Of a stretch of 27,870 nucleotides of DNA, positions 3,085 through 21,517 are shown piece by piece (the stretch's first letter is position 1; the number at the start of each line of letters is the position of its first letter). Below the pieces are notes generated by a model. That model worked only from the letters and a program-made list of their open reading frames with translations. It made no database searches and was not told the DNA's origin. This DNA comes from Candidatus Bipolaricaulota bacterium (GTDB lineage: Bacteria > Bipolaricaulota > Bipolaricaulia > RBG-16-55-9 > DRXL01), in assembly GCA_041641035.1 (NCBI GenBank), contig JBEPZC010000001.1:1-27870 (forward strand). Direction: 5' to 3'. The position numbers and the translations under genes were made by a program.

Positions 3085-3120
3085 ATGAGCACGCTCATCT
3101 TGCAAGATGAGTTCGATCAA
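3085..3120. promoter_or_regulatory. Tandem Crp/Fnr-like boxes upstream of crp2
   Basis: ATGAGCACGCTCAT (3085, palindromic arms) and ATGAGTTCGATCAA (3107), 22 bp apart. Minus-strand TAAGCT at 3062-3057. Confidence 0.65.
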
Positions 3121-3138
3121 AGGGGAATGTGACGGAGA

Positions 3139-3945
3139 TCACGGGGCGCGCCGCTGGCCGCACTGCGGGCAGAATCGCTCATCGGCACGGAAACGATAGC
3201 CGCAGCGTGCGCACCATTGCGCCGGACGTTGCGGCACGGCCTCTGGAGAGACCCGTCGTCTTCGCCAAAACCATATGAAGCTGATGACGCCAAGGACTAC
3301 GACAGCAAGCCCCGCCCCAAGCGCTGCCCACAAGATCGAGATCGGTGAGTGAGGGCGCAGCGACGGCAGGGTGTCGGTCTTTCTGTAGCTGACGCGCTGC
3401 TCGATGAGAGTCCCTGGGGAAACAGCGCCGATCCTTTTACCGAAGTAGCGGAAGCCGCGGGTGTCAATCCCTTGGGGGTCGAGCGCGGGGCTTGTTTGCA
3501 ATCCTGTCGCCCGCAACGGCTGTTGCACTTCGATCTCCAAGTTTTTGATCTCGTAGCGATCCGACCGAAAGCGAAAGACGAACGACTTCTCTTCAGAAGT
3601 CCCAAGCACATCATCGTAGTACTCCAGCTGAAAGCGTCGGCTTCCAGGGGTGAAGAGCACAAGCTGCCCCGCTTCACCGGGGAGAAGCTGCCAGTCGTCG
3701 GCAAGCAGGGTTCCAGCAGGGCCAACATGAGCGACGGCGTGGATCTGCGCTGTGCTGGGAATGGTGAACGCAAGAGGACTTTGTGGGTCTTCAGCAAGCT
3801 CGCCCCGATAGATCACGAGCAGTCTGGGATCGTCGTACTCCGGCCAAAGCGAGATCTCCAAACGCTCAAGCACTATTGGGACCTGCTGGGAGAACCCCAG
3901 CGCCCCCATAATAATGAGCATGAAGACGCTCAATGCGCGACGCAT
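3139..3945 (-). CDS. Hypothetical membrane protein: signal peptide, extracytoplasmic domain, TM helix, C-terminal zinc ribbon
   Basis: Hydrophobic N-terminus (MRRALSVFMLIIMGALGFS), TM helix (ISILWAALGAGLAVVVLGVISFIWFW) followed by RRRR, and CARCG...RFCPQCG. Confidence 0.75.
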   Translation of the reverse strand: MRRALSVFMLIIMGALGFSQQVPIVLERLEISLWPEYDDPRLLVIYRGELAEDPQSPLAFTIPSTAQIHAVAHVGPAGTLLADDWQLLPGEAGQLVLFTPGSRRFQLEYYDDVLGTSEEKSFVFRFRSDRYEIKNLEIEVQQPLRATGLQTSPALDPQGIDTRGFRYFGKRIGAVSPGTLIEQRVSYRKTDTLPSLRPHSPISILWAALGAGLAVVVLGVISFIWFWRRRRVSPEAVPQRPAQWCARCGYRFRADERFCPQCGQRRAP

Positions 3946-9171: not shown

Positions 9172-9207
9172 ATGATACAGATCGGGGGAAAAGATGAGAT
9201 ACGTCAT
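9172..9207. promoter_or_regulatory. Tandem Crp/Fnr-like boxes, putative internal promoter
   Basis: ATGATACAGATCGG (9172) and ATGAGATACGTCAT (9194, within AAGATGA-N6-TCATCTT), 22 bp apart, in an 80-bp gap of an otherwise overlapping gene string. Confidence 0.6.
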
Positions 9208-13643: not shown

Positions 13644-13679
13644 ATGATACATGGCATTTTTGAATATGATATCTATCAA
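13644..13679 (-). promoter_or_regulatory. Tandem Crp/Fnr-like boxes for the Rieske/cytb operon
   Basis: ATGATACATGGCAT (13644) and ATGATATCTATCAA (13666), 22 bp apart. Minus-strand -10 TAGAAT at 13620-13615. Confidence 0.6.
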
Positions 13680-13760: not shown

Positions 13761-13784
13761 GAATTAACGTAAGGTGAAGTGAGC

Positions 13785-14510
13785 ATGGCTGCTCTCACAG
13801 ATCAGATACACCGATGCATGCTGTTTGAGCACCTGAGCGAGCGAGCGCTTGGAGAGCTGCGAAAACACATGCGGAAGATCACCTACGGGAAGGGGGATCT
13901 CATCTTTCAAGAGGGAGGTCCCTCAGCAGGGTTTTATATAGTGATCAGCGGGCTAGTGCAGTACGGGAAGCGCTCAGGGCAGCGTGGCCGACGACGCATC
14001 CTGAAGCTCTTAGGGCCAGGGGATTGCTTTGGGGAAGAGATGCTCTTTCAGCCCGAAGTCTGTCCATGTCCCGGCTATGCCCGTGCGCTCACGGAAACGG
14101 AGGTCATGTTCATCGAGCGTAGCGCTTTTATGGACCTCCTCAAACGCTATCCCTCTGTGGCCCATCGGTTGTGTGAGTATCTGACAAAACAACTACGAGT
14201 CTTCGAGTGCAAGCTGGTCGAACTGGCCTATGAGCCTGTGGAGCAGAATCTCATACGGCTGCTGCTCATTCTTACGGATCGCTTTGGGAAACGCACGAAA
14301 GAGGGCATCTCTCTCGAGATGCCGCTGAGCCGTCAAGAGCTGGCTGAACTGGTGGGGGTCCACTTAGATACAGTCATTCACGAATTGAGCAAGTTACGAG
14401 AGCAAGGCTTGATCGCGCTCAGCGATCACAAGATCGTCATCACAGAGCCTGAACGCCTGCGAGAGCGAGCGGAGCCGCAGACAACATGTCTGAGCGAGAA
14501 GCTCTTTTAA
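13785..14510 (+). CDS. Crp/Fnr family transcriptional regulator (Crp3)
   Basis: IFQEGGPSAGFYIVISGLVQ...GPGDCFGEE and HTH LSRQELAELVGVHLDTVIHELSKL. ATG 13785 is preferred over GTG 13779 for its spacing from AAGGTG. Confidence 0.9.
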   Translation: MAALTDQIHRCMLFEHLSERALGELRKHMRKITYGKGDLIFQEGGPSAGFYIVISGLVQYGKRSGQRGRRRILKLLGPGDCFGEEMLFQPEVCPCPGYARALTETEVMFIERSAFMDLLKRYPSVAHRLCEYLTKQLRVFECKLVELAYEPVEQNLIRLLLILTDRFGKRTKEGISLEMPLSRQELAELVGVHLDTVIHELSKLREQGLIALSDHKIVITEPERLRERAEPQTTCLSEKLF

Positions 14511-17543: not shown

Positions 17544-17587
17544 AGGGGGCTTGGCCGGCTTCACGGCCAAGCCCTCTTGGTTCGTTT
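17544..17587 (+). terminator. Intrinsic terminator after the octaheme gene
   Basis: GGGCTTGGCCG-gcttca-CGGCCAAGCCC stem followed by a T-rich tail (TCTTGGTTCGTTT). Confidence 0.65.
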
Positions 17588-17652
17588 ATGACGAAAATCA
17601 TCTCTCTTTATGAGAGCGCTCATAGCATGGGCAGGGAAAGCGCGCCTATACT
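17588..17652 (+). promoter_or_regulatory. Tandem Crp/Fnr-like boxes and -10 for resABC
   Basis: ATGACGAAAATCAT (17588) and ATGAGAGCGCTCAT (17610), 22 bp apart. TATACT at 17647-17652. Confidence 0.7.
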
Positions 17653-17682: not shown

Positions 17683-18282
17683 ATGGTGGCACGGCTGGTC
17701 GTCGCGGTCTTGATCGCAGCGGGGGCCATTGTGCTGGGGGTTATTAGCTATGCGTTCTTCACCGGCCGCAGCGATCTGAGCAAACTCACGCTCACTGAGG
17801 GTCGAGGGCTCTTCGTGGACGACCCCAAGGCCCTCATCGCAGAGACCGCCGCGAGCTTAGGGCATCTCGCCCCGGATTTCTCGTTGGAAGACCTCACCGG
17901 CCGGAGGGTGAGCCTGAGCGACCTGCGGGGCAAACCCGTCTTACTCAATCTCTGGGCGACGTGGTGCCCCCCCTGCCGCCAAGAGATCCCCGAACTCCAA
18001 GAATTCCATGAACGCTACGGGGAGAAGATCGCGCTCGTGGGCGTCAATTGGGGCGAAGACGCGAACACTGTGAGAGGTTTTTTGGCTCAGTTTGGCGTCA
18101 GCTATCTCAACTTACTTGACCCTCGCGGCACAACGTTTGTTCTCTATGGGCTGACGGGCATCCCCGAGAGCTTCTTCATCGACCCTGAGGGCTACATTCG
18201 TGGGGCGTGGATTGGGCCGATCACAGCAGAAAGTATCTCCAAGGGCTTTGCGCGGTTGGGGCTTCTCAAAGAAAGTGAGTGA
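17683..18282 (+). CDS. resA: ResA/TlpA thiol-disulfide oxidoreductase (cytochrome c maturation)
   Basis: N-terminal TM; APDFSL...GKPVLLNLWATWCPPCRQE...GIPESFFIDPEG. Confidence 0.9.
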   Translation: MVARLVVAVLIAAGAIVLGVISYAFFTGRSDLSKLTLTEGRGLFVDDPKALIAETAASLGHLAPDFSLEDLTGRRVSLSDLRGKPVLLNLWATWCPPCRQEIPELQEFHERYGEKIALVGVNWGEDANTVRGFLAQFGVSYLNLLDPRGTTFVLYGLTGIPESFFIDPEGYIRGAWIGPITAESISKGFARLGLLKESE

Positions 18283-18288
18283 TTCTCT

Positions 18289-20061
18289 ATGACCTGTGCG
18301 GCGTGCGGAACAGTCAATACCCCTGATAGTCGCTTTTGCAAGCACTGCGGCGTAGCACTCCAAGTGCTCTGTAGTCGCTGTGCCACGGCGAACACGCCCG
18401 ATAGCAGATTTTGTAAGGCGTGTGGGGCTGCTTTGACACAAGCGGTTCCAGCTCCACCGCCCCGCGCCACAGAGCTCGCGGTTGACGGTGCACTGCGGGG
18501 CAAGGTCGCGGAGGTCGTCAAGGTCTTAGGCGGGCTCAACTGTGGGCGCTGCGGCTATCGCACGTGCGCTGAAAATGCTCTGGCGATTGTGCGCGGGGAG
18601 GCCCCCCCACACTCCTGCGTCCAGGGCGGCGAAGAAGCTGCTCGTCAAATTCGCGCGATCTTGGGCCATCCTGAACGACCCAGCTTCGGGGCGCTGTTGT
18701 GGGAGCAGCTCACGTCGATTAAGCTTGCCATCGTGCTCATCGTCGTGATCGTCTTGCTCTCTATCATCGGCACGATCATCCCCCAAGGCAAAGATCTGCT
18801 CTTTTATATAGCTCGTTATGGAGAGGCCGGGACGAATATCATCAAAGCGCTCAAGCTCGACAGCCTCTATCACTCGTGGTACTTTGTGAGTTTGCTTGTG
18901 CTGTTAGCTCTCAATACCGGGGCGTGCGCGACCAAGCGCTTTCGCGTCTCGTGGGAGCTGGTGCGCAAGCCCGTCGAGCCCCGCAGCGCCGACGAGATCG
19001 CACAACTCCCAACCCAAGCCAAGCTCGCTCCTCATCTTTTTGAAAAGCTCGAAGACGCTCTCAAGCGCCGGCGCTACCGCGTGCGCCGCGAAGGCACGCA
19101 GCTCATTGCGTATAAGAATCTGTGGGGCCGGCTAGGCATCGATATCTTGCACGGAAGCTTGATCATCATTCTCATCGGGGGCATCGTCGGAGGGCTTCTG
19201 GGGTTTGAGAGTTTTCAGATCGCGCACAAGGGCGAGACGTTCACGATCCCCCAGGGCAACTTCCAAGTCCGCGTGGACGACCTAAGAGTCGTCAACTACG
19301 AGGGCTCCAGTCAAGTGAAAGACTGGTACACCACGCTCACGGTCATTGATGGCGGCCGCGAAGTGCTCACCAAGACCATCGAAGTGAACGAGCCGTTGAC
19401 GTATAAGGGGATCTCTCTCTATCAAGCATCGTTTGGCAGCGACTGGCTGGGCGGGGCCGAGCTGACGTTTCGCATCGAGCGCGTGAAGGAGGGAAGAGCT
19501 GAGCCGGTCAGCGAGATCACGACGAAGGTCGGCGCGACGTTCCCTCTTGAAGAGGGGCGCACGGCAAAAGTCGTCGCGTTCTATCCCGATTTTATCGTGA
19601 CAGAGCAAGGGCCGGCCAATCGCTCGCAAGCCCTCAACAACCCCGCAGCGTTCTTAGAAGTCTACAACGGCGACCGGCGAGAGTTCACAACGTGGACGTT
19701 TGCCCAGTTCCCCGAATTCCAGCACGACTTCGCCAGAGAGACCCCCTATCGGTTCTATCTTGTGGGAATGAAAGCCCCGGAGTTTACGGGGCTGCAGATC
19801 GCGCGCAACCCCGGAATTCCCATTATCTACGCTGGGTTTATTCTGCTGGTCTTGGGGCTAGCGTTGAACTTCTATCTGCCGCCAAGGCGCCTGTGGGCCG
19901 CCGTGAAAGAGAGCGCTCTGTATGTCGGAGGACTAGGGCGTGAGCCACGCGAGTTCGAGCCGGACTTCGAAGAGATCATCGCCGACCTATCCCAGGTATC
20001 CGCTCCTACAGAAGACTCAAAAGAAAAGACATTACTCAAGGAGGTTAGCAAGCATGGATAG
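18289..20061 (+). CDS. resB: ResB/CcsB cytochrome c biogenesis protein with N-terminal double zinc ribbon and Fe-S domain fusion
   Basis: ResB core: LTSIKLAIVLI...IIGTIIPQG, YHSWYF...CATKRF, ILHGSLII, VNEPLTYKGISLYQASF, LQIARNPGIPIIYAG. Residues 1-130 carry four CxxC plus CGRCGYRTC-x16-C. Confidence 0.9.
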   Translation: MTCAACGTVNTPDSRFCKHCGVALQVLCSRCATANTPDSRFCKACGAALTQAVPAPPPRATELAVDGALRGKVAEVVKVLGGLNCGRCGYRTCAENALAIVRGEAPPHSCVQGGEEAARQIRAILGHPERPSFGALLWEQLTSIKLAIVLIVVIVLLSIIGTIIPQGKDLLFYIARYGEAGTNIIKALKLDSLYHSWYFVSLLVLLALNTGACATKRFRVSWELVRKPVEPRSADEIAQLPTQAKLAPHLFEKLEDALKRRRYRVRREGTQLIAYKNLWGRLGIDILHGSLIIILIGGIVGGLLGFESFQIAHKGETFTIPQGNFQVRVDDLRVVNYEGSSQVKDWYTTLTVIDGGREVLTKTIEVNEPLTYKGISLYQASFGSDWLGGAELTFRIERVKEGRAEPVSEITTKVGATFPLEEGRTAKVVAFYPDFIVTEQGPANRSQALNNPAAFLEVYNGDRREFTTWTFAQFPEFQHDFARETPYRFYLVGMKAPEFTGLQIARNPGIPIIYAGFILLVLGLALNFYLPPRRLWAAVKESALYVGGLGREPREFEPDFEEIIADLSQVSAPTEDSKEKTLLKEVSKHG

Positions 20062-20935
20062 CGCGTTCTTCTTCTATCTGAGTGCCGTGGGGTACTTTCT
20101 GAGCTTTGTCTTCTATCTGCTGCATCTTATCGGGAGCCCTACAGATCAGAAATCTGGGCTGGGCATCGTGGCAGCGCCCCAGCCGTGGGTGCTCAAGCAG
20201 ACGACCTGGGGCAAAGTCGCCACAGGGACAACTCTTGTCACCGTGCTCATCAGCACGGTCGGGATGGTGCTGCGCGTTCTCGAGATGCATCGGGTGTCGG
20301 ACTTCTGGATGCTGCCGGTGACCAATACGTATGAGACGCTAGCGTTCTTCTCCTGGGCGATCCCCCTGGTCTATCTGCTCTTTGAGTGGCGCTACAAAAT
20401 CAGAGTGGTCGGGGCTTTTGCGACAGGGTTGGCGTTTCTGTTCATCGCGTTAGCGTCATCGCCGCTTTTGTCGAGCGAGGTCCGTCCGCTGGTGCCGGCG
20501 CTGCAGAGCTATTGGCTCGTCTTGCACGTCTTCTTTACGCTGGGCGGCGAGGCGTTCTTCGCTGTGGCGTTTGGCGCAGGTGCGCTCTTCTTATGGCTAC
20601 AGAAGCGTGGGGGGAATCTCCAGACGCTCAAGATGCTCGATAACCTGGGCTACAAAGCGATTGCCTTAGGGTTTCCGCTCTTCACGCTAGGCGGGCTGGT
20701 CTTTGGGGCGATCTGGGCACAGCATGCGTGGGGACGCTACTGGGGCTGGGACCCCAAAGAGACGTGGATGCTCATTACTTGGTTCTTCTATGCGCTCTAC
20801 TTGCACGTGCGGGTGAGGTGGGGCTGGCGCGACGCGAAAACGGCTTGGCTGGCGGTCGGCGGCTTCGCCGTCGCTATGTTTACGTGGTGGGGTGTGAATT
20901 ATCTGTTAGCGGGCTTGCATAGTTACGCAGGCTAA
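20054..20935 (+). CDS. ccsA: ResC/CcsA cytochrome c synthase (System II)
   Basis: WWD domain GAIWAQHAWGRYWGWDPKETW and LQSYWLVLHV. Start moved from 19940 to ATG 20054 (MDSAFFF). Confidence 0.95.
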   Translation: MDSAFFFYLSAVGYFLSFVFYLLHLIGSPTDQKSGLGIVAAPQPWVLKQTTWGKVATGTTLVTVLISTVGMVLRVLEMHRVSDFWMLPVTNTYETLAFFSWAIPLVYLLFEWRYKIRVVGAFATGLAFLFIALASSPLLSSEVRPLVPALQSYWLVLHVFFTLGGEAFFAVAFGAGALFLWLQKRGGNLQTLKMLDNLGYKAIALGFPLFTLGGLVFGAIWAQHAWGRYWGWDPKETWMLITWFFYALYLHVRVRWGWRDAKTAWLAVGGFAVAMFTWWGVNYLLAGLHSYAG

Positions 20936-20953
20936 CACAAGAAGGAGGTGATC

Positions 20954-21517
20954 ATGATGCTCAAGCGTATGATAGCCATTGCGCTCTTTGTGGCAGTCCC
21001 CTTAGGGGTGACTGTGATAGTGATGGCGTTGGCCCAGCAGCCTCCGGCTATTCCCAAGGGGCACGTCTCGATCAAGACGGGAGCCCCCGTCGAACTCTGC
21101 TTCCGGTGCCATAAGGCTCCACCGCCCTTGCCCACAGAGAAGACGTCGTTCTGCGCGACGTGTCATATCAACATTCACATAGAAGAGACGGAATTTGTCG
21201 ACGTGACGCGGGTGGGGAATCGCTCCAAGCACCCTGTAGAGTTCAACTGGGCAGCAGCGGATTGCTCATCGTGCCACACCAAGCCGCATAAGACGAAACC
21301 CGCGCCGCACCCGGTTACGGCGCAGCAGCCGTTGAGCGCCTTCTGTCAGCCGTGTCACTTGAACCCTGCAGACCCAGAGAAAGCCGTAGGCGGACAGGAG
21401 AAAGCTGGAGAGTTCTGCGCCGGGTGTCACCATATCGGGCTCAATCCGAAGCACGTGAAGGCCCCCGCTGGGGTCAAAGTTAACTTCTGCTTCGGTTGTC
21501 ATAAGACGACGCCGTGA
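20954..21517 (+). CDS. Small hexaheme c-type cytochrome (paralog 1)
   Basis: Signal peptide, 6 CxxCH; AGGAGG RBS favours ATG 20954 or 20957. Confidence 0.88.
   Translation: MMLKRMIAIALFVAVPLGVTVIVMALAQQPPAIPKGHVSIKTGAPVELCFRCHKAPPPLPTEKTSFCATCHINIHIEETEFVDVTRVGNRSKHPVEFNWAAADCSSCHTKPHKTKPAPHPVTAQQPLSAFCQPCHLNPADPEKAVGGQEKAGEFCAGCHHIGLNPKHVKAPAGVKVNFCFGCHKTTP

Follow-up and report, generated by a model that had tools for sequence, protein, structure and literature searches.

A cytochrome c synthase subunit of Bipolaricaulota fused to zinc ribbons and a predicted RnfB-type [4Fe-4S] domain

Introduction

In System II, the cytochrome c synthase CcsBA handles haem as Fe(II), which moves from a cytoplasmic vestibule to a transmembrane (TM) histidine site and then to an outer WWD site, and the formation of the thioether bonds requires that the iron be ferrous (PMC10663686). 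Reviews say that CcsBA "transports reduced haem" and nothing more, while a built-in reductase has been proposed for System I, where CcmF would reduce the incoming haem via a TM haem of its own (PMC10663686). How the haem iron is kept or made ferrous on the way to its attachment is an open point for System II. To our knowledge, no CcsB with its own redox cofactor has been described. Here we present a gene from a member of the Bipolaricaulota, a heat-loving and uncultured bacterial lineage, in which ResB/CcsB is preceded in frame by zinc ribbons and by a predicted [4Fe-4S] domain. It lies in a stretch of 27,870 nucleotides of contig JBEPZC010000001.1 (called "the window" below), and is a single uninterrupted open reading frame of 590 codons at 18289-20061 (+) encoding a product of 590 amino acids (P0001).

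The added Fe-S domain is also found in two other machines. In the corrinoid iron-sulfur protein (CFeSP), it forms a mobile [4Fe-4S] module by which the cobalt of a protein-bound corrinoid, itself a tetrapyrrole, is reduced. In the Rnf complex, the small [4Fe-4S] domain is flexibly tethered beside a TM helix and passes single electrons to the intramembrane [2Fe-2S] cluster of RnfA/E (PMC12174285). Both the parts and the machine are already known, and what is new is their combination, its single origin and its fixed operon context.

The fused protein and its modules

From its sequence, the gene encodes a lineage-specific paralogue of ResB/CcsB, a subunit of the System II cytochrome c synthase, to which predicted cytoplasmic N-terminal modules have been added (Table 1). 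The double zinc ribbon (DZR, PF12773) is found by Pfam at residues 3-46 with 40.8 bits against a gathering cut-off of 27.3, the "putative Fe-S cluster" domain (PF04060) at residues 82-111 with 39.4 bits (cut-off 23), and ResB (PF05140) at residues 145-553 with 267.6 bits (cut-off 24.6), the last match covering positions 2-477 of the 486 in the profile. The predicted zinc ligands are the cysteine pairs C3/C6, C17/C20, C28/C31, and C42/C45, arranged in two CxxC-x10-CxxC units. The Fe-S motif is C85-x2-C88-x4-C93-x16-C110, with its cysteine codons at 18541, 18550, 18565, and 18616, and the predicted Fe-S module lies about 35 residues ahead of the first membrane helix. No Fer4 domain is found in the fused protein by Pfam. 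The initial annotation had read the gene as an in-frame fusion of a ResB core to a double zinc ribbon and to an RnfB/AcsC-type domain with the C-x2-C-x4-C-x16-C pattern, and the Pfam modules, all above their cut-offs, bear this out. Its residue numbers, and the span of 18289-18678 for residues 1-130, are correct on direct reading.

Table 1. Features of the fused gene and of its surroundings in the window.
Feature	Coordinates	Strand	Size, motif or composition	Basis
Fused gene, zinc ribbons + [4Fe-4S] domain + ResB/CcsB	18289..20061	+	590 aa	AlphaFold2, fold matches
Double zinc ribbon (predicted)	18289..18438	+	residues 1-50, 8 Cys	PF12773
RnfB/CFeSP-type [4Fe-4S] domain (predicted)	18490..18678	+	residues 68-130	PF04060
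ResB/CcsB core	18679..19947	+		PF05140, hydropathy, secondary structure
Terminator-like hairpin closing the upstream ArsR/octahaem unit	17544..17577	+	14-bp stem, 10 GC pairs, T-rich tail	
Tandem Crp/Fnr-type boxes	17589..17622	+	TGA-N6-TCA twice, 22 bp apart	exact two-box pattern match
resA-like membrane-anchored thioredoxin, first gene of the unit	17683..18282	+	WCPPC motif	Pfam AhpC-TSA/Redoxin
ccsA/resC partner	20054..20935	+	293 aa from ATG 20054; WWD motif WGWDPKETW	PF01578, 137 bits
Hexahaem cytochrome c after ccsA	20948..21517	+		Pfam cytochrome c7/c3 families

The full-length AlphaFold2 model has a mean predicted local distance difference test score (pLDDT) of 91.1 and a predicted template modelling score (pTM) of 0.79, and its best fold matches are two structures of Helicobacter hepaticus CcsBA, 7s9y and 7s9z, both with a probability of 1.00. 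The fused protein can be compared with the described ResB/CcsB-CcsA systems (Bacillus subtilis ResBC; H. hepaticus and Bacteroides thetaiotaomicron CcsBA; 7s9y/7s9z/25vk). Like them, it has a PF05140 core with four TM helices and a large periplasmic domain, the histidine TM-His1 (H288), an invariant cysteine on the cytoplasmic side (C213), an adjoining ccsA with its WWD motif, and a resA-like thioredoxin upstream. It differs from them by some 130 additional residues, predicted to be cytoplasmic, which hold the 8 zinc-ribbon cysteines and the [4Fe-4S] motif, and by being a second paralogue beside a plain ResB.

Reality of the fusion and selection on it

Such a gene could be an artefact, either a chimera or a frameshift in the assembly, or else a plain ResB translated from an internal start behind a non-coding frame. 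The initial annotation had itself named these as ways in which it could be wrong, and an in-frame TTG (L137) does lie near the usual start of plain ResBs. However, the same architecture is widely shared. A word-indexed search with residues 1-140 yields 22 further clusters with the same Pfam set, and in a full-length search PF04060 and PF05140 occur together in 47 protein clusters, with identities down to about 41%. The architecture is present in 19 species-level genomes that come from many studies. The DNA itself has also been recovered independently: Logan contigs of four runs from two independent studies, of hot-spring and aquifer metagenomes, bridge the Fe-S/ResB junction without indels (18355-19143, at a depth of 635; 18420-19211; 18366-18701; and 18554-18882). 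No RNA run containing the stretch was found.

Codon-level comparison with ten orthologous loci, in which synonymous sites are near saturation, gives ratios of nonsynonymous to synonymous substitution rates (dN/dS) of 0.00-0.12 for the Fe-S domain and 0.01-0.10 for the zinc ribbons. The ResB core has values of 0.08-0.19, with 0.31 against the most distant orthologue (L018), and the C-terminal tail 0.17-0.45. These low ratios show the N-terminal extension to be translated and under strong purifying selection, and to be the most constrained part of the protein. The four ligand cysteines are invariant in the 39 aligned sequences (37 fused proteins, down to about 40% identity, and 2 RnfB-type proteins), a pattern well beyond chance, so that no loss of ligands is seen at this level; there are no cysteines beyond these four in the Fe-S domain of the same alignment. 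Much of residues 80-126 is also invariant in an alignment of 35 clusters, while the copy number of the zinc ribbons in the family is 2, 1 or 0. Shared architecture and bridging contigs dispose of the chimera or frameshift, and the dN/dS of the extension of the internal start. Taken together, the comparisons refute the artefact, as regards both the DNA and the selection that acts on the long form, and leave it virtually no probability.

Distribution and origin

When 1.84 billion representative proteins are scanned exhaustively with HMMER, using residues 70-240 as the query, 1814 matches result, of which only 4 cover the Fe-S part. The others begin at query position 56 at least, at the ResB core, apart from P0193, which begins at 36 and therefore still beyond the cluster ligands. 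Among the GTDB species genomes, the fused form occurs at loci L005-L022, all of them titled Bipolaricaulota/Acetothermia or belonging to metagenome-assembled genomes (MAGs) labelled Fraserbacteria or Thermotogae at NCBI; these MAGs are mislabelled. The next best matches after the fused loci are plain ResBs of Aminicenantes and of Geobacter relatives, at about 30% identity. Two loci in other phyla (L030 and L069) had been considered as fusions from their N-terminal tblastn coverage, and their open reading frames proved to be plain ResBs of 454 and 457 amino acids. In the exhaustive representative search, no fused form lies outside the Bipolaricaulota family. Of the 184 genomes of the phylum, 19 carry the fused form; they belong without exception to the order of the window's genome and are spread over three families. 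The initial annotation knew of no described ResB with this architecture. If this is read as a claim of uniqueness to one genome, it does not stand, since the architecture is family-wide in Bipolaricaulota and its members are simply labelled "ResB" in the databases. The open-access literature searched, on Fe-S-bearing CcsB/ResB, on PF04060 and on Bipolaricaulota multihaem cytochromes, contains no description of this architecture.

Most genomes with the fused gene also carry a plain ResB. In that of the window (G000), a plain resA-resB-ccsA operon is found on contig C92 (L002:567-3972). Its ResB has 470 amino acids and is 39% identical to the fused ResB core, and its CcsA has 369 amino acids, is 37% identical to the CcsA adjoining the fused gene, and has an insertion of about 70 residues relative to it. 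In a maximum-likelihood tree restricted to the columns of the ResB core, a branch with a Shimodaira-Hasegawa-like approximate likelihood ratio test (SH-aLRT) support of 98 sets the 37 fused proteins apart as one clade. Their sister group (support 99) consists of 21 plain ResBs including the own paralogue of the window's genome, and this topology indicates that the fusion was gained once, after duplication. Just outside the pair of fused and plain Bipolaricaulota clades, on a long branch, lies P0073, a ResB of 561 amino acids with N-terminal zinc ribbons and no Fe-S domain. Fusions of a zinc ribbon to ResB therefore exist without the cluster domain.

Relatives of the Fe-S domain

The closest relatives of the Fe-S module are the N-terminal domains of genuine RnfB proteins from another Bipolaricaulota family, with 60% identity over 55 amino acids by BLASTP and 50-59% in a genome scan. 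The genes of these proteins sit in rnfCDGEAB-type operons. In the PDB, the best sequence matches are RnfB of Azotobacter vinelandii (8ahx_B, 1.8e-6), RnfB of Clostridium tetanomorphum (7zc6_B, 4.9e-5), and CFeSP (4djd_C, 1.8e-3). When residues 57-142 are modelled on their own (AlphaFold2, pLDDT 83), the domain superimposes on the N-terminal [4Fe-4S] domain of CFeSP with a root-mean-square deviation of 1.6-2.1 Å over 51 columns, at 31-33% identity. The three best fold matches in the PDB are all CFeSP N-terminal domains with probabilities of 0.66-0.99, and the short length of the domain makes for weak Foldseek E-values (0.5-2.9). The RnfB copy of the domain is poorly resolved in cryo-electron microscopy maps owing to its mobility (PMC12174285), and this may be why no RnfB structure is matched.

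The fused protein was also considered as an RnfB in its own right. This was rejected: with TIGR01944, the model of the whole RnfB protein, it reaches 37.8, short of the cut-off of 68.7, and matches over residues 73-129 only, Fer4 domains are lacking, and the neighbouring genes are resA and ccsA. RnfB (PF04060; 8ahx_B and 7zc6_B) has the same C-x2-C-x4-C-x16-C domain next to a single TM helix on the cytoplasmic face. However, in RnfB the domain comes after this helix, whereas in the fused protein it precedes the helix, and the fused gene has no polyferredoxin acceptor domain and lies outside any rnf operon. Structurally, the modelled domain is matched best by the CFeSP large subunit AcsC/CfsA (2ycl, 4c1n, 4djd), but the sequence similarity of this subunit is weaker than that of RnfB (E 1.8e-3), and neither its TIM-barrel nor its corrinoid-binding part is present here.

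The Rnf "B" of the window's genome is atypical. This protein of 211 amino acids (G000 contig C16, L003:1027-1662) consists of a TM helix, an NqrF-like 2Fe-2S ferredoxin domain and a C-terminal PF04060 domain, and has no polyferredoxin part. The gene that follows it (L003:1668-2720) encodes a 2Fe-2S ferredoxin fused to an ExtQ-like b-type cytochrome membrane domain. The same "B" frame, of about 220 amino acids, recurs through the genus.

Topology and haem-handling residues

Hydropathy places TM1 at residues 146-164, TM2 at about 197-215, TM3 at 286-304, and TM4 at 510-528, and the corresponding AlphaFold2 helices are 144-163, 197-226, 278-304, and 509-529. Between TM3 and TM4 lies a periplasmic beta-rich domain (305-509; 305-506 in the model), and residues 216-285 form a loop rich in lysine and arginine. 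The C-terminal domain of unfused CcsB is cytoplasmic (PMC10663686). Because the number of TM helices is even, the K/R-rich loop is where it is, and the C-terminus is published as cytoplasmic, the N-terminal modules should lie in the cytoplasm as well, in agreement with the initial annotation, which had put the N-terminus on that side. The need to insert Fe-S clusters and zinc also favours this location. The linker between the zinc ribbons and the Fe-S domain (residues 51-60) has low model confidence, while residues 91-150 have a pLDDT of about 90 and make a short, confident link from the Fe-S domain to TM1. In the model, the cluster domain would thus be held near the membrane face.

TM-His1 is H288 (19150-19152), at the cytoplasmic end of TM3, and a profile alignment pairs it with the TM histidine of CcsBA from H. 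hepaticus (7s9y). C213 (18925-18927) occupies the cytoplasmic end of TM2. Both residues are invariant in 106 ResB sequences. ResB of B. subtilis is reported to bind haem covalently on the cytoplasmic side, probably via a cysteine (PMC3884852), and we infer that this cysteine, Cys138, may be equivalent to C213. Near the cytoplasmic side, TM4 ends with N527 and P532 in the fused clade (window 19867-19869 and 19882-19884), and the sister plain clade has histidine at both positions. These changes (H527 to N and H532 to P) were tried as markers of the fused clade, and Pro532 is not diagnostic since it also occurs in 14 of 48 other plain ResBs. In a subgroup of the fused ResBs (P0040, P0041, and P0044-P0047; about 660 amino acids), the periplasmic domain contains long low-complexity inserts rich in Ser, Gly, Asn, and Asp.

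Possible roles of the cluster

The initial annotation had hypothesised that the cluster keeps haem ferrous at loading or gates maturation by redox or O2 state, and the present findings are consistent with both ideas. By analogy with its relatives, we tentatively favour, with somewhat less than even confidence, a role for the Fe-S domain as a tethered module for electron input, which would reduce the iron of haem bound at the cytoplasm-proximal sites of the synthase. This reading combines the roles of the domain in RnfB and CFeSP with the need for Fe(II) haem and with the haem path described for CcsBA. The cluster would act as a tethered one-electron module drawing electrons from a low-potential donor in the cytoplasm, maybe a ferredoxin, and docking of this donor may be the task of the zinc ribbons. 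The electrons would then be handed to the haem iron at the cytoplasm-proximal entry or TM-His site of the ResB-CcsA complex, allowing haem to arrive at the outer WWD site as Fe(II), as needed for thioether formation. The placement of C213 and H288 at the cytoplasmic ends of TM2 and TM3, with the Fe-S domain linked closely to TM1, supports the proximity that such a transfer would need. CcmF provides a functional analogy only, as a synthase with a built-in redox centre proposed to reduce haem (PMC10663686), but that centre is a b-haem rather than an Fe-S cluster and differs in location and ancestry as well; in fold, the ResB model resembles 6zmq only weakly.

Several points weigh against such an input module. 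A donor domain comparable to the polyferredoxin part of RnfB is missing from the fused protein. The mechanism does not require the Fe-S domain, since System II functions without it in other organisms and in the plain paralogue of the same cell. Nor does the fusion go with a loss of haem synthesis, ALAD being present in 6 of the 19 fused genomes, and the same data fit a sensor equally well. A complex prediction of the Fe-S domain (60-131) with the ResB core, CcsA and a 4Fe-4S cluster gave a score of 0.00, which speaks neither for nor against docking.

The N-terminal modules could also be an adaptor without redox turnover, in which zinc ribbons and Fe-S domain make up a docking platform and the cluster is merely structural. 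Candidate partners would be a haem-delivery protein, the ribosome or translocon, or the Rnf complex, in which RnfA/E are the usual recipients of this domain. That P0073 has the zinc ribbons alone, that their copies vary from 0 to 2, and that the Rnf B subunit of the window's genome is atypical are all in keeping with this idea. However, the Fe-S part is the most conserved segment, and the invariance of its ligands and of many flanking residues exceeds what a structural staple usually needs. We therefore regard a purely structural adaptor as unlikely.

The operon and its control

The fused gene lies within a compact set of genes. The hairpin that closes the upstream unit lies 23 nt past the stop codon of the octahaem gene. 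The tandem boxes then stand 61 nt upstream of the resA-like start, with a GGAGG ribosome-binding site before the ATG at 17683. The resA-like stop is 6 nt ahead of the ATG of the fused gene, and the likely ATG of ccsA (20054) overlaps the resB stop by 8 nt. The resA-like protein scores 109.6 bits with the NCBIfam ResA subfamily model NF002854, under the cut-off of 170 bits, while CcsA reaches 225 bits with TIGR03144, above the cut-off of 187.6. The hexahaem cytochrome c, which is kept downstream of ccsA in L005-L013, is likely a client of the unit. A resA-like gene is directly upstream of the fused gene in 19 of 19 related loci, and ccsA directly downstream in all the full-length ones. These loci are in or beside multihaem cytochrome clusters, usually with Crp-family regulators and cytochrome genes nearby. 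The neighbouring pentahaem gene was tried as a marker and set aside, being present in just 9 of the 35 genomes of the order.

Since a hairpin and tandem boxes precede resA, these three or four genes appear to form a single unit under its own control, within a large island of multihaem cytochromes. Tandem TGA-N6-TCA pairs are strongly enriched in the window, with 6 observed against 0.11 expected in shuffles; box pairs are seen at 2335-2368, 3086-3141, 9173-9206, 13645-13678, and 17589-17622. The window also encodes a Crp-family protein (13779-14510) that has no obvious FNR-type N-terminal cysteine cluster.

In another explanation, the cluster is a sensor or gate. It would report on cytoplasmic O2, on redox state or on the supply of iron or Fe-S clusters, and its loss or oxidation would shift the N-terminal conformation and so block or open haem entry. 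Many-haem cytochromes, which are costly to mature, would then be matured only in an anoxic and iron-replete cell. A sensor would suit a protein with one cluster and no donor domain, in which the model puts the Fe-S domain right at the cytoplasmic face beside TM1. It would also suit a paralogue that coexists with a plain and presumably constitutive system, belongs to a unit separately regulated by tandem Crp-type boxes, and serves very haem-rich cytochromes. On the other hand, the domain is most closely related to electron carriers, RnfB and CFeSP, rather than to sensors (PMC12174285), transcriptional control is already in place upstream, and no known PF04060 sensor turned up in the searches made. 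We consider a sensor or gate, together with its effect on cytochrome maturation, a serious rival, though less probable than the electron-input module, which we keep as the preferred reading.

CcdA and haem supply

PF02683 (CcdA/DsbD) has no match in the window, as the initial annotation had already pointed out for ccdA and dsbD, nor anywhere in the genome, which is 86.6% complete. In genera g1 and g3, the CcdA/DsbD TM domain is absent or marginal (20-33 bits, in frames of 149-316 amino acids), and each of these genomes keeps one or two resA-like thioredoxins. It could be proposed that the cluster replaces the missing CcdA and feeds electrons into the thiol branch, either to the resA-like thioredoxin or to the CXXCH disulfide of the apocytochrome. 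The absence of PF02683 from the window's genome, the absent or weak CcdA in most genomes of the genus and of its sister genus, and the resA-like gene that always adjoins the fused one would all fit. However, a link between CcdA absence and the fusion must be rejected: the fused genomes of families f3 and f5 have a clear CcdA, and in G104 the contig that carries the fused gene (from 5352) encodes it directly upstream (C61:3788-4423). Conversely, CcdA is also lacking in members of the genus that have no fusion (G082 and G085; G080 has only a marginal match of 29.7 bits). Moreover, the Fe-S domain has only its four ligand cysteines, and its cluster would face away from the periplasmic thiols, across the membrane, and no route to them is known. 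The replacement of CcdA by the fusion is thus disfavoured, and a role in the thiol branch appears very improbable.

ALAD, URO-D, ferrochelatase, HemQ and NirJ2/AhbD have no match in the window's genome at its 86.6% completeness, and neither ALAD nor ferrochelatase is found in any of the ten fused genomes of the genus, five of which are 91-96% complete. Related genomes are dependent samples, and absence from a MAG is never a proof. These organisms encode dozens of multihaem cytochromes with up to 19 haems, together with two System II operons. As genes for haem synthesis are absent in spite of these many cytochromes, the small-genome organisms of the genus are probably haem auxotrophs that import haem. 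An association of auxotrophy with the fusion was considered and rejected. Auxotrophy is rather a trait of the genus, and ALAD is present in 6 of the 19 fused genomes; among genus members without the fusion, G082 has ALAD and ferrochelatase, and G074 has ferrochelatase.

Imported haem is normally ferric, and a reductase fed from the cytoplasm would therefore have an obvious use. This motivates a bolder version of the electron-input module, in which the fused ResB-CcsA would be at once a transmembrane haem reductase and a synthase, with electrons passing from the cytoplasmic [4Fe-4S] cluster to the TM-His haem and on to the periplasmic WWD haem. This version is speculative and we consider it unlikely. 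If true, the relay would be the System II counterpart of the b-haem relay of CcmF, using the injector domain of Rnf, and it would let bacteria that mostly appear unable to make haem attach haem that arrives oxidised.

Conclusion

The Bipolaricaulota provide a natural ResB with its own conserved, predicted Fe-S centre at the cytoplasmic entry of haem, and with a plain paralogue as an in-cell control. Since the fused and plain forms are present in the same cell, the question of haem reduction in System II becomes directly testable. The fusion is also a clear case of the "swinging cluster" domain of Rnf and CFeSP being reused on an unrelated membrane machine. Bipolaricaulota are usually described as fermentative or acetogenic. 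In these bacteria, the fused gene marks a dedicated maturation system for their large multihaem cytochrome islands.

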